From: a virus
Reading direction: 5' to 3' (one strand)
IMG/VR virus record: IMGVR_UViG_3300030106_006270
Coordinates: 31,891-95,890 of that record
DNA length: 64,000 bases
How positions within the stretch are numbered: position 1 is the first letter of the stretch; every line of letters begins with the position of its first letter. The notes beneath the pieces are model-generated. The model ran no database searches. It was not told the DNA's origin and saw only the letters and a program-made list of their open reading frames with translations. Positions 12,160 through 20,434 of the stretch are shown one piece after another. The translations under genes and the position numbers were made by a program.

Positions 12160-12503
12160 ATTTCTCCTGTATGTGGTAATCTTATTAAATAATAGTATCT
12201 TCCATCTATTGTGAAAAGTTCATTCTGAGAATATGGATTCACAAGCTCATATACTATTCGTTCCAATAGAATCTCTTTCACTTCTTCGGAATGTGCTTCT
12301 ACCATATTGTTGAAACTATATGGTTCTACTATATCAATATCCAAATAACAAGCACCATCATATGTCGCTGATAATCTGTATGGCACCATCTCAACCTTTT
12401 GTCCAGCTTTTGGATATGATTGCGCTTCTGTAAGAGATATACTGAGTATAAGTGTAGCAGCTGCTATAACAAAGTGTATTAGTGAAATTGATGTTCTTTT
12501 CAT
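12141..12503 (-). CDS. Secreted hypothetical protein
   Basis: N-terminal signal peptide. Confidence 0.55.
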   Translation of the reverse strand: MKRTSISLIHFVIAAATLILSISLTEAQSYPKAGQKVEMVPYRLSATYDGACYLDIDIVEPYSFNNMVEAHSEEVKEILLERIVYELVNPYSQNELFTIDGRYYYLIRLPHTGEIWHISY

Positions 12504-16158: not shown

Positions 16159-17910
16159 TTACAATAAATGTGACACCTCAATATGTTCTGCATTGAACTG
16201 TTTTTTCTTTATACCACAGCCCTCTACGAATGTCCACTGTTTTCCACCTTTGAAAATTCTTTTATCTATAATTAAATCTATATATCTATCATTACTCACA
16301 CCTATGCTCATAAGTATTAGTTTCTTCTTAAATCTGTATATAGCTCTACTGTTTGCCACAACTCCACTGAAGTAAGTAACTCCTTCGGATTCTTCACAAC
16401 CAAAGTCGTTTGATAGAAAATCAGAACCATCCCACCAACCTGTTTTTTCAAACTGAAACATTGGTGGGCCTTGCTTTCTATTATATAAGTAATTACCGGC
16501 TAATATACTTTGTCTTCTATGCACCCATCTACGATAAGATGAGTTACAATTCTTAATAGTGGCTTTCCAAAACTTCTGTGGTTCTCTGGCTTTCCAATAA
16601 GCCAATGCCCATACTAATTGTCCATAGGATAAAGCGTGTCCTCTGCAGTAACTATACTTCGGTGAGTGTCTTAGTTCAGTAATAATATTTGATTGGTCAG
16701 CGTCTTTCTTTTTACCTTGCAATCTATTGAGAAACTCATCCATCACATCAGGTTGTTGTTTGCTCCAACCTCTACGGTATCTATCGGCAAAATCCATAGA
16801 ACATCCTAAACTATCAGAGATATATTCTATGGCATCTTCATCAGTTATTATCTGTCTCTTACCCTTACCACCACTACGGAAGTAAGCTGCTTTCCTACCA
16901 CCATCGGCAGCGGCTGGTCTTATCAAAGCCAGAGCCAACGCCACATCATACACATTCTTTGGTTGCAAAGCCAGTATAGTCTTTCTCATAGTACGGCTTT
17001 CACTTTGAGTTAAACCTATGACTTCTCCTCTGCATAGTAATTCAGAAGCTAACTTATCATCCTGCGGATACTCTGCTACAGGTTTGGAACTAAGTTGCCA
17101 CAATTGAGATAATCCTCTATTACATAGTAAATCTATTTTGATTAAGTTCTGCTCCTCAACATCGTACTTGTCTAATATGATTTGCTTCCTCTGTTCTTTC
17201 AACCAAAGTTCATTCGGTACATTGTCGTTAAAAACAATCAACCCACCACAATGTAGAGACCACTGTCGTTGCTTACCCAAAAGAGATTTCGCATAGTGTT
17301 GAACGTCTTTACGAACATAAGGGTCGGGAAAGATGTCGGAGAGTTTGTACCTTCGTGGAAGAAACTTACGATAACCAAATTTTCGAATTGCTTCCCTCAT
17401 AGCAGACTTAGGCTTGTACATAACTTTATTACTTATCCTAGCAACTTTGTTAGGGTGTATCTCGTGGAACTGCTCTATCAAATCATCCCTAATAAAGTGA
17501 GGTACATCTAAGTCGATATCGGGTTGGGTATCCCTACACCAGTTCATAAATCTAGTTAATGGAATCTTTTCTCGGATAGGGTCGATATCACTAATTCCTA
17601 ATTGATAACAGATTAACGAACTAGCCGCTGAACCTCTGAGGACATGCGGTATGTTTTGATTTTTAATCAACTGTAGTAAATCACTTACTCTGTGAAATGT
17701 AGAGACAAAACCTTTTTGCTCAATAATCTTATACTCTTTGTCTAATCTTCTGATATACTCCATACCAGTGGGATAAGGGCGTCTGAATCTTTTAATCAAT
17801 GCCCCTATGGGCTGGGAATACTTTTTATCAACTAAACCTATGTGTAAATCTGAATTACTTATATAACCTTCCATGCAGTAATAAATAGTTTCGGAAGGAT
17901 GGAATATCAA
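16159..17910 (-). CDS. dnaE: Compact family-C DNA polymerase (DnaE-like, lacking the PHP domain); true start possibly 17874
   Basis: RGSAASSLICYQLGISDIDP; PDIDLD; HCGG; KIDLL; ALALIRP; YSYCRGHA...LAYWKA. Confidence 0.85.
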   Translation of the reverse strand: MIFHPSETIYYCMEGYISNSDLHIGLVDKKYSQPIGALIKRFRRPYPTGMEYIRRLDKEYKIIEQKGFVSTFHRVSDLLQLIKNQNIPHVLRGSAASSLICYQLGISDIDPIREKIPLTRFMNWCRDTQPDIDLDVPHFIRDDLIEQFHEIHPNKVARISNKVMYKPKSAMREAIRKFGYRKFLPRRYKLSDIFPDPYVRKDVQHYAKSLLGKQRQWSLHCGGLIVFNDNVPNELWLKEQRKQIILDKYDVEEQNLIKIDLLCNRGLSQLWQLSSKPVAEYPQDDKLASELLCRGEVIGLTQSESRTMRKTILALQPKNVYDVALALALIRPAAADGGRKAAYFRSGGKGKRQIITDEDAIEYISDSLGCSMDFADRYRRGWSKQQPDVMDEFLNRLQGKKKDADQSNIITELRHSPKYSYCRGHALSYGQLVWALAYWKAREPQKFWKATIKNCNSSYRRWVHRRQSILAGNYLYNRKQGPPMFQFEKTGWWDGSDFLSNDFGCEESEGVTYFSGVVANSRAIYRFKKKLILMSIGVSNDRYIDLIIDKRIFKGGKQWTFVEGCGIKKKQFNAEHIEVSHLL

Positions 17911-19193: not shown

Positions 19194-19379
19194 TCAGGCT
19201 TCTCCGATAATCATGCCTAAGGCTTCATAGTGAGTTCTATCAGAGTGTACTGCTACCAGTATTGTTTCGATGAACTCTGAGTCATTTTCGAGCACATACT
19301 TTGCCTCTCCTAATGACCACATCCTTACCATCTCATCTTCTAGCCTAGCTATTATCTCATATACTTGTTCCATATCCAT
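19194..19379 (-). CDS. Small acidic hypothetical protein
   Basis: ORF track; TATTTATA motif immediately upstream. Confidence 0.5.
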   Translation of the reverse strand: MDMEQVYEIIARLEDEMVRMWSLGEAKYVLENDSEFIETILVAVHSDRTHYEALGMIIGEA

Positions 19380-19429
19380 ACCTATAAATAGTGTAGTGTG
19401 TTAGCAAAAATCTTTTTATCTTACCGCTC

Positions 19430-19500
19430 AAAAAATAGACGGTGCCAAAGGGTAGTTAACTCTATCGCCAGGAAAACTATCCTTCCAACAGCACCGCCTA
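19430..19500 (-). terminator. Extended hairpin + T6, probable 3' end of the ncRNA
   Basis: TAGGCGGTGC/GCACCGTCTA and AAGGATAGTT/AACTACCCTT stems followed by TTTTTT. Confidence 0.6.
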
Positions 19501-19830
19501 CATAACAACAAACAATAAGGTAAATCTTTGAGTTGGTCTGTTTCTGTCTTTTAGTTCGAACACTCAGACATAATACGAGCTATCTTACGAATTACACTTT
19601 AAGGGAACTCACCCCACCATAAGCCTACTCTTGCATTTCGAACCTATGGCCAACAAATTCTTTGTCGGTATTTATCTATGAGTTCCGACTTCTCAGCTGC
19701 CTCACCATTCTTGACTCTACTGAGGACTTTAGCAGAGCCCCACACTCTTCTTACTCTATCCCGTCTTTACCCAATGTGGTAGGTGGGATTACGAGCTTTC
19801 TCTAATTCATCGGTATTATCTCATTTCTCA
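19430..19830 (-). ncRNA. Candidate large structured non-coding RNA (~400 nt)
   Basis: No ORF; own promoter (19837-19865); many helices including a long-range closing stem; ends in a long hairpin plus U-tract. Confidence 0.7.
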
Positions 19831-19836
19831 TATATA

Positions 19837-19865
19837 AAGCTACGAAGAAATCCGCTAAAATACAA
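19837..19865 (-). promoter_or_regulatory. Sigma70-type promoter TTGTAT-N17-TAGCTT driving the ncRNA candidate
   Basis: Conserved six-copy motif. Confidence 0.75.
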
Positions 19866-19898
19866 GGAAAAAGTCCAGAAATATTGATCTTTTTTTAC

Positions 19899-19928
19899 TT
19901 GACATATATGGGATTTATTCAGTATACT
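19899..19928 (+). promoter_or_regulatory. Divergent plus-strand sigma70 promoter TTGACA-N18-TATACT
   Basis: Near-consensus -35 and -10 with a T-rich upstream element. Confidence 0.5.
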
Positions 19929-19942
19929 CTGGCGCTGCAGAA

Positions 19943-20434
19943 TTAGGATGGCTTACTGAAGGCAGAGTAGACAGCCTTTTGAAATGACTTAACTGACTTC
20001 GGTATATCTACGCTCACTCTGTCGAGCTTCAACAGATAGAAACAGTTGTAGCATAACACCCTTAGATTCGCTAAGTCTTTGTTAGTTGGGTCGTCATCCA
20101 AATAGTCCAGCATTAGCGGCTTAGACATATCCTGTGGTCTATACTCATCATATCCACAGTTACCACACTCCTCCGCTAAATAACCTTCGCGGTGTAGTCG
20201 ATGCTGTAATTTCGTGGTACTGTAATTAGGATTCTCACCCGCTAGTATCTTATCCAACTCTATTGGTCTACCCTTAGAGTCTCTCGACACTCCCGCATTA
20301 CTGGCGGGCTCCCATAAGTCGTATAGCTTAGCATACTTCTTAAAGGTATTATAACTTACGCTAAGTATTTTGGCTGCTCTACGCATAGATGTGGTTTCGT
20401 TGATTGCCCAAGCTATTTTACTTTTTGCTAACAT
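19943..20434 (-). CDS. HTH + degenerate HNH zinc-finger protein
   Basis: SMRRAAKILSVSYNTFKKY HTH; CGNC...LMLDYLDDDPTNKDLANLRVLCYNCF with catalytic His replaced. Confidence 0.75.
   Translation of the reverse strand: MLAKSKIAWAINETTSMRRAAKILSVSYNTFKKYAKLYDLWEPASNAGVSRDSKGRPIELDKILAGENPNYSTTKLQHRLHREGYLAEECGNCGYDEYRPQDMSKPLMLDYLDDDPTNKDLANLRVLCYNCFYLLKLDRVSVDIPKSVKSFQKAVYSAFSKPS

Follow-up and report, generated by a model that had tools for sequence, protein, structure and literature searches.

The minus strand of a 64-kb stretch of phage DNA (positions 31,891 to 95,890 of IMG/VR record IMGVR_UViG_3300030106_006270; hereafter the window) carries at 19865-19430 a region that, judged from comparison with related sequences, is non-coding, with an RNA structure under selection and an early-type promoter ahead of it. 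By the same comparison, this region of ~400 nt is a chain of independent, portable RNA modules, not a single closed fold. The folds of three of these units, here called modules I, K and II, are absent from Rfam 15, and the modules are new families relative to that release; the locus is a structured phage non-coding RNA (ncRNA) carried in a variable region of the PeSL type. An earlier note on this DNA had proposed one multi-helix ncRNA of ~400 nt closed by a long-range helix. The promoter at its head, its non-coding nature and its many helices stand, while the single closed RNA does not, and our result explains why such regions look like one giant RNA when a single sequence is read alone.

The region is free of open reading frames (ORFs), as the earlier note had stated: on the minus strand between 19865 and 19430 there is none longer than 33 aa, stops occur in every frame, and six-frame and stop-read-through translations matched no Pfam family. 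A cmscan search of 19300-20000 against Rfam 15 at E <= 10 returned nothing except a chance small nucleolar RNA match in the promoter; at gathering score there was no match in the window, and the modules of 22 related loci gave no match to Rfam 15 either. ARAGORN finds no tRNA or transfer-messenger RNA (tmRNA) in the RNA region. With both programs negative, the statement that the region resembles neither tmRNA, RNase P nor group I or II introns is borne out, as is, with regard to Rfam 15, the suggestion of an undescribed family. Blastn of the RNA region against 50,697 records of cultured phages gave no match, and two exact-match motif patterns, for modules I and II, were found in none of 185,579 bacterial and archaeal genomes.

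Relatives were collected using the neighbouring gene for a 163-aa HNH-like protein as anchor; 53 viral and 80 metagenomic loci were fetched, and the modules were compared across ~55 related marine phage contigs, referred to below by L numbers. At the closest anchor-gene loci, the gene is in every case followed by an ORF-poor gap of 420-840 nt and then by an ORF of ~62 aa. Blastn and nhmmer reveal homology between the window RNA and these gaps in a piecewise manner only: 19814-19659 is homologous in L136, L110, L143 and L097/L100/L101, and by covariance model in the divergent L073, while 19655-19525 is homologous in L087, L097, L093, L094, L081, L096, L009, L109, L143 and L144, and weakly in L036. 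In four DNA pattern scans of viral contigs, L143 and L144 were the only additions, the neighbouring DUF6445 gene used as anchor yielded no related loci among viral contigs, and a weak match of L038 to model R1 (E = 0.28) was taken as chance. Six module families were searched with seeded profiles, I, K and II from the window and A, CB and D from relatives, and the modules were found in the following orders:

Window: promoter-I-K-II-hairpin
L136 and L073: promoter-I-K-hairpin
L144: promoter-II-hairpin-terminator
L110: I-K-A-D
L093: CB-K-II-D
L087: CB-D-II-promoter-A
L016: promoter-A-A

Further combinations occur among the ~55 loci in the profile searches. Module K always lies 3' of I or of CB. 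In L136, which is 94% identical to the window, and in one contig from a sequencing run, module II and the hairpin (230 nt) are swapped for 99 unrelated nt between conserved flanks, and in L143 and L144 the modules stand in other gene contexts, closed by a hairpin and a U-run.

The three families from relatives, which also have no catalogue entry, lie at the same locus in L009-L021, L066, L082, L087, L093 and others. Family A has the form GGGAACUAGGGUUAAGAGCCACUG-hairpin-CUGGAGUUCCC and is often tandem, family CB carries a T-arm-like GGGGUUCGAAUCCCC, and family D, ~130 nt long, has a GC-rich hairpin at its end.

Each of the window modules has its own set of helices, and those of modules I and K are interleaved:

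19700-19796, minus strand: module I, a double pseudoknot of ~100 nt with five helices, recognised by covariation
19796-19793 / 19756-19753, minus strand: module I P1, GCUC/GAGU, with variants GCUU/GAGC, ACCU/GGGU and CUCC/GGAG
19789-19785 / 19762-19758, minus strand: module I P2, AUCCC/GGGAU, replaced by ACUCC/GGAGU in L073
19779-19774 / 19745-19740, minus strand: module I PK1, CCACAU/GUGUGG, with variants CCUAAU/AUUAGG and GUUGG/CCAAC
19739-19731 / 19721-19713, minus strand: module I P3, GGCUCUGCU/AGUAGAGUC, a 9-bp hairpin
19725-19722 / 19703-19700, minus strand: module I PK2, CCUC/GAGG, replaced by CCCC/GGGG in L073
19664-19695, minus strand: module K, an H-type pseudoknot of ~35 nt, S1 and S2 interleaved, loop 3 A-rich
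19695-19692 / 19682-19679, minus strand: module K S1, UGAG/CUCA, with variants UCAG/CUGA, UCGG/CCGA and UGGG/CCUA
19689-19685 / 19668-19664, minus strand: module K S2, GUCGG/CCGAC, with variants GGUGG/CCACC, GUUGG/CCAAC and GAGUU/AACUC

In module I, PK1 joins the loop of P2 to the segment after P1, and PK2 joins the loop of P3 to a downstream GAGG; P3 itself exists in four wholly different yet complementary versions around a constant loop, AAAGUCCUC. All five helices keep their pairing in 5/5 independent lineages, with at least one compensatory change each. Module K runs S1a-S2a-S1b-S2b with four complementary variants of each stem, the arrangement of an H-type pseudoknot. The alignment of I and K together comprises seven sequences from five independent lineages and seven helices, three of which cross others; fitted to the nested part of the structure, it has 94.9% of its cells paired and compensatory changes at 22 of 37 pairs, against at most 4 when the register is slid. 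The motif UGAG occurs twice, which gives a choice of two partners to the loop of P3 and likewise to that of K. The window's genome holds one copy of I and K.

Module II is larger and is built around a junction:

19532-19654, minus strand: module II, a four-helix junction domain of ~125 nt, recognised by covariation in 12 distinct sequences
19654-19650 / 19536-19532, minus strand: module II P1, GUUGG/CCAAC, replaced by UAGUG/CACUA in L093 and GAGAG/CUCUC in L036
19649-19642 / 19624-19617, minus strand: module II P2, CCAUAGG/CUUAUGG, replaced by CCUGAGA/UUUCAGG in L109 and CUCAGUU/GAUUGAG in L143
19615-19613 / 19605-19603, minus strand: module II P3
19570-19566 / 19549-19545, minus strand: module II P4

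The unpaired stretches CGAAA, GAGUAGG, UGAG, CCUUAAA and CUCG are invariant, a pattern characteristic of RNAs that form tertiary structure or bind a partner. In a model-based alignment of the 12 sequences, 93.3% of the cells are paired and compensatory double changes are seen at 16 of 24 pairs. None of 500 shuffles reached the observed support; with the 3' partners slid by 1-3 columns, no more than 7 pairs were compensatory and pairing did not exceed 52%. G-U pairs are frequent, and the RNA strand is therefore the minus strand. Module II is present as a single copy in each genome examined and is 83-96% identical between phages, compared to 70-76% for the adjacent conserved gene, the modules being mostly more conserved than the gene; at the level of sequence, this points to purifying selection, to recent exchange or to the two together. 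In a more distant phage, a divergent copy of the module lies at L036:7163-7287 (27.7 bits), and the anchor gene is 2.7 kb away. As every helix of this copy is changed yet complementary, it suggests that the module II family is wider than the loci fetched.

Three motif likenesses within module II were tried and rejected. The T-loop-like GGUUCGAAA might have pointed to a tmRNA or tRNA; neither ARAGORN nor Rfam gave a match, and conservation is lacking, relatives reading UACGAAAG instead. The UAUGG of a putative 11-nt tetraloop receptor is likewise unconserved, and a RegB GGAG site in the P2 loop is missing from the window copy.

Modules K and II are each followed by a short conserved sequence:

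19656-19663, minus strand: linker AAAGAAUU between K and II, single-stranded and conserved
19529-19522, minus strand: second linker copy, AAAGAUUU, after II

The pattern AAAGAWU was found 36 times in the arrays against 8.9 expected, a ~4-fold enrichment, and stands 3' of 16/18 K modules and 11/15 II modules. It is a conserved 3' tail; because the copies are related by descent, its enrichment is not an independent statistic.

Folding energy alone, except in the terminal hairpin described below, does not go beyond chance (z = +0.09 for module II, -1.32 for I and K, and -1.87 for the whole stretch), and the structural support is therefore that of covariation. All of the strings quoted in the earlier note lie where it had placed them on the minus strand. 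Among its proposed stems, ATCCC/GGGAT, GTCGG/CCGAC, CCATAGGTT/GGCTTATGG, GGG/CCC and TGTCT/AGACA are backed by compensatory changes in relatives, and CCTCA/TGAGG weakly so; TACC/GGTA and AGAGT/GCTCT give way to the better-supported PK1 (CCACAU/GUGUGG), P1 (GCUC/GAGU) and P3. Leaving aside these two and the long-range closing helix, seven stems of the earlier note are confirmed in all. The doubling of AGCTCGTA turns out to be a coincidence, since only its second copy, which forms a junction in module II, is invariant, and the first varies in relatives.

The array is headed by a promoter cassette and a two-codon minigene:

19828-19875, minus strand: early promoter cassette of PeSL type, with -35 TTGTAT at 19865-19860, a 17-nt spacer and -10 TAGCTT at 19842-19837
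19802-19822, minus strand: degenerate GAGAUAA (19822-19816), resembling a Shine-Dalgarno (SD) sequence, and the minigene ATG AAT TAG (19810-19802), two codons

The promoter that the earlier note had seen directly ahead of the region is indeed one of eight copies in the genome of a block of ~50 nt (-35 TTGTAT or TTGACT, 17-18 nt, -10 TAGCTT or TATATT), and its start site is predicted near 19831-19829. The other 7 copies run into an AAAGGA ribosome site, N8 and an ATGAAC gene start, whereas the copy at the RNA region reads GAGAUAA-N5-ATGAATTAG at its 3' end. A reading as a Bacteroidota-type -33/-7 promoter was dropped in favour of ordinary -35/-10 spacing. PeSL cassettes of T4-type phages have been described as running, at the 3' end, through a Shine-Dalgarno sequence into the next gene's start codon (PMC4122927), and as mediating modular shuffling (PMC2839356, PMC4122927). 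The window cassette is likewise multi-copy with sigma70-like -35 and -10 elements, ends in an SD and a start codon, and forms a boundary of replacements between close relatives. Upstream of the promoter, after the preceding gene, lies only a 4-bp hairpin, UCUG/CAGA, with CAGG(G)/(C)CCUG at that place in relatives.

The minigene ends 5 nt ahead of module I (P1). ATG-AAY-stop minigenes with a better SD (GAGG, AAGGA) stand at the head of the arrays in L136, L110, L143, L015, L016 and L021, and the versions in L073 and L097 have 2-13 codons and end at or within the fold. The minigene may be a relic of the promoter cassette; alternatively, because its stop lies so close to P1, it may serve to load a ribosome beside the fold. 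In the LEE1 leader of enterohaemorrhagic E. coli, a two-codon minigene is translated and has an effect on the downstream RNA (PMC3262186). The window resembles that leader in having AUG, one sense codon and a stop behind a ribosome site in a long untranslated RNA; the LEE1 minigene, however, tunes the translation of the next gene, while the window has no gene inside the predicted transcription unit.

At the other end, the array runs into the long hairpin with a T6 tract that the earlier note had described, and then into a second conserved block:

19430-19501, minus strand: terminal hairpin of 66 nt (19501-19436) and U6 (19435-19430), with apical loop UCCUGGCGAUAGAGU at 19473-19459
19429-19401, minus strand: conserved block GAGCGGUAAG...UUUGCUAA after the terminator, followed by a -10-like TATTTA and then by a 61-aa ORF

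The hairpin has a folding energy of -30.3 kcal/mol (z = -4.59; 0/200 shuffles were as stable). As a stable GC-rich hairpin followed by a U-run, it looks like an intrinsic (Rho-independent) terminator; a simple terminator scanner missed it because its loop and stem exceed the scanner's limits. The same 15-nt loop is found on different stems within the module A hairpins of L012, L014, L066, L082 and L087. A hairpin and U-run close the array in the window and in L143, L144, L015 and L021, and the gene that follows has its own promoter-like block. In the window this gene is the 61-aa ORF (19379-19194), which probably has its own promoter, as the conserved block and TATTTA follow the terminator.

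In most related loci, too, a block corresponding to 19381-19429 of the minus strand (GAGCGGUAAG...UUUUUGCUAA, then TATTTA) stands just before this ORF. Its element TTTGCTAA resembles the MotA box of T4, for which reason the block may be a middle-type promoter; the AGCGGUACGCU part of it forms a small covarying hairpin in some relatives.

We suggest that these observations are best explained by four selection-maintained modules on an early transcript with a trans-acting role, an explanation that we regard, taken whole, as about an even call. The host sigma70 polymerase would transcribe the array early, as one primary transcript from ~19830 to 19431 that stops at the hairpin and U6; the ribosome site and two-codon minigene of the cassette would be a relic, or would park a ribosome at the 5' end. 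RNase E reportedly prefers RN↓WUU, according to a cleavage map from Salmonella, and the linker AAAGAWUU fits this preference, which suggests that the transcript may be processed into separate RNAs: cleavage by an RNase E-type enzyme within these conserved, single-stranded linkers would part the modules from one another, and K and the terminal hairpin would shield the 3' ends so created. The modules would then act in trans as stable structured RNAs, a view favoured by the arrays of L143 and L144, closed by hairpin and U-run in other gene contexts. The most likely role would be that of protein-binding decoys or scaffolds for early host take-over or counter-defence. We favour this role, with modest confidence and by analogy, because early expression and a hypervariable, cassette-like composition are typical of such functions. 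Contigs from three seawater metatranscriptome runs of an associated study and one run of unspecified kind (80% likeness) place short pieces of relatives on modules and flanking genes alike, one of them reaching into the promoter, and so speak neither for nor against transcription.

Several points weigh against this explanation. Promoter use, transcript ends and processing are predictions from the sequence only, and the decoy or counter-defence idea comes from early placement, hypervariable composition and analogy only. The sequences are related, so that the shuffle controls overstate the significance; modules I and K are supported by only 5 independent lineages, and the covariation of P2 and of PK2 comes in each case from the divergent L073 alone. 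Finally, a crude test finds a canonical hairpin and U-run in only 13/41 distinct arrays, which makes read-through likely in many relatives, and the array may therefore be a leader of the downstream small genes there. In such a cis-acting scheme, it would form the 5' part of an early operon, with attenuation of the terminal hairpin by a ligand or protein, or antitermination like that of HK022 put, governing these genes. In ~50 contigs, the array invariably comes right after an early promoter and precedes one and the same conserved small ORF, and a knotted fold whose junction bases are invariant is a common mark of aptamers. However, the module content varies freely while the downstream gene stays constant, the modules of L143 and L144 are terminator-closed in other gene contexts, past the terminator the downstream ORF is preceded by a conserved promoter-like block of its own, no module directly overlaps a ribosome site, and the exact-match module patterns lie upstream of no gene in any bacterial genome scanned. 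We consider a leader unlikely, though it is the foremost rival of the trans-acting explanation. We see rather less of a case for a new self-cleaving ribozyme or small-molecule aptamer, for which module I with K would be the most likely candidate and the linkers the cleavage or expression-platform sites: the compact fold with interleaved helices and invariant unpaired nucleotides, the conserved linker 3' of modules, and the doubled UGAG, whose alternative partners would allow a switch, all agree with it, but the folds are unlike any ribozyme or riboswitch model in Rfam 15, and no conserved class of downstream gene points to a ligand.

Similarly improbable in our view is that the modules are selfish or structural passengers of recombination-prone cassettes in T4-type hyperplastic regions, with folds that merely stabilise or insulate the transcript. 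PeSL-like promoter repeats, known to mediate shuffling (PMC2839356, PMC4122927), flank the modules, whole modules are replaced between close relatives, and a homing-endonuclease-like gene adjoins; yet hairpins that simply stabilise would need neither a four-way junction nor three pseudoknots, nor unpaired bases that are invariant, the sequence conservation is above that of the neighbouring protein gene, and the HNH-like protein has no catalytic His in any of 12 aligned homologues. The model of the earlier note, one ~400-nt RNA comparable to GOLLD or ROOL and closed by ATAATAC/GTATTAT (19819-19813 with 19576-19570) and TGAATT/AATTCG, is very hard to uphold. The complementary strings are present, and the minimum free energy fold of the whole stretch uses part of them, but the closing helix, which would join the promoter-proximal leader to the junction of module II, is not conserved: its arms belong to units that occur apart (L136, L110 and L073 versus L087, L144 and L081), I and K being found alone in L136 and L073 and II alone in L144, and they are not complementary in L097 and L143, where both units are present. 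For these reasons we regard the helix as a coincidence, and the whole-region z is modest as well. Least credible of all is that the region is no RNA but the remains of a gene, or an element acting at the level of DNA, for instance an origin or an array of protein-binding sites. The cassette still carries a start codon, and its other 7 copies head protein genes, but the stops in all frames, the lack of any family match, indels that are not multiples of three, and pairing kept through G-U pairs that are valid only in minus-strand RNA speak against it.

Going beyond the trans-acting explanation, we speculate that the modules might be a hitherto undescribed, portable toolkit of RNA effectors of marine T4-like phages, each neutralising a different host factor, or a new class of ribozyme or aptamer; we think this broader idea improbable, though not far-fetched. 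If it is true, the host factors bound could be a defence nuclease, an RNase or a ribosome-associated protein, and the reassortment of modules by promoter-cassette recombination in an arms race would be an RNA counterpart of islands of protein anti-defence genes.

Phage T4 produces two small stable RNAs, species 1 and 2 (rnaC and rnaD), whose function is not known and which arise, early or middle, from a multi-RNA precursor in the tRNA region. Unlike these, the window modules lie 3.8 kb from the nearest tRNA, a tRNA-Cys found by ARAGORN, and have no T-arm or tRNA-like acceptor end, T-arm-like hairpins being found only in module CB of relatives; the likeness is one of description only. GOLLD and ROOL are, like the array, phage-borne, protein-free and highly structured, but there is no covariance-model match, and they are single large architectures where the window has independent units of ~35-125 nt joined together. 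The manA and wcaG RNA motifs are structured RNAs of T4-like cyanophages, found by comparative genomics (Weinberg et al. 2010, PMC2864571); their folds are different, with no Rfam match in the window, and each stands as a lone motif ahead of particular genes instead of in shuffled arrays. The locus resembles PeSL regions (Arbiol et al. 2010, PMC2839356; Comeau et al. 2014, PMC4122927) in its repeated early promoter block, its variable region and the replacement of whole cassettes between relatives. PeSLs as described, however, flank protein genes, whereas the cargo in the window is a chain of pseudoknotted ncRNA, and the start codon of the cassette opens a frame of two codons only. Fremin et al. 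2023 (PMC10690425) predicted 8,495 uncatalogued phage RNA candidates of 29-151 nt from IMG/VR, the same kind of data, and single window modules could be among them; the main text of that paper, as far as it was searched, makes no mention of shuffled module arrays.

Phage genomes are annotated almost wholly by their proteins, and this locus holds at least three well-supported RNA folds outside Rfam. Their place is the early region, that of host take-over, in an abundant group of uncultured ocean phages, where they behave as exchangeable cassettes. If they act in trans, they add an RNA layer to the conflict between marine phages and their hosts; action in cis would make them regulatory RNAs of a new kind. 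From the alignments and models of this analysis, constructs can be defined for experiments on probing, cleavage and pull-down.

The window is the final 64 kb of a 95.9-kb IMG/VR record with an estimated completeness of 52%; its genes are all on the minus strand, and its GC content is ~33%. The phage has a T4-type DNA polymerase, with Microcystis phage Mel-JY01 as nearest cultured relative (47% identity) and ~32% identity to cyanophages and to Pelagibacter phage HTVC008M, and the contigs related to it come from marine metagenomes in every case. From the polymerase type and this marine origin, we infer that the phage is an uncultured marine T4-like myovirus.

The gene upstream of the RNA array encodes the protein used as anchor:

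19943-20434, minus strand: 163-aa protein with an N-terminal helix-turn-helix (HTH) domain and a degenerate HNH/zinc-ribbon

In all 12 aligned homologues, DY stands in place of the catalytic DH; the mean column identity across them is 71%, and the gene is syntenic with the RNA arrays. From its sequence, the protein looks like a domesticated DNA- or RNA-binding protein rather than a mobile endonuclease. Two readings that tie such a gene to an adjoining RNA were rejected. For a group I intron with a homing endonuclease, no intron model matched and the flanking ORFs are not two halves of one gene; for a guide RNA of the HEARO/IscB type, the neighbouring protein, with its 163 aa, HTH and degenerate HNH, has no RuvC domain, and there is no Rfam match.

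Between the stop of the HNH-like gene and the RNA promoter, a strong sigma70-like promoter (TTGACA-18-TATACT, 11/12 matches) lies on the opposite strand at 19899-19928 (plus) and is directed into the 3' end of that gene. The pattern TTGACW-N16-18-TAnnnT is kept at the matching place in 23/26 related loci, and a conserved antisense transcript of the HNH-like gene is therefore likely. Elsewhere in the window, 16159-17910 (minus) encodes a DnaE-like (family C) polymerase fragment of 583 aa that lacks the N-terminal PHP domain, in a phage that also has the T4-type family B polymerase. Outside the window, the same genome carries a tRNA-Gly (12297-12369) and its own tmRNA (G000:C1 14431-14840, minus strand; ARAGORN), the tag of which reads EYDYSPMVASNQDQPTYAYAA and ends in a stop.

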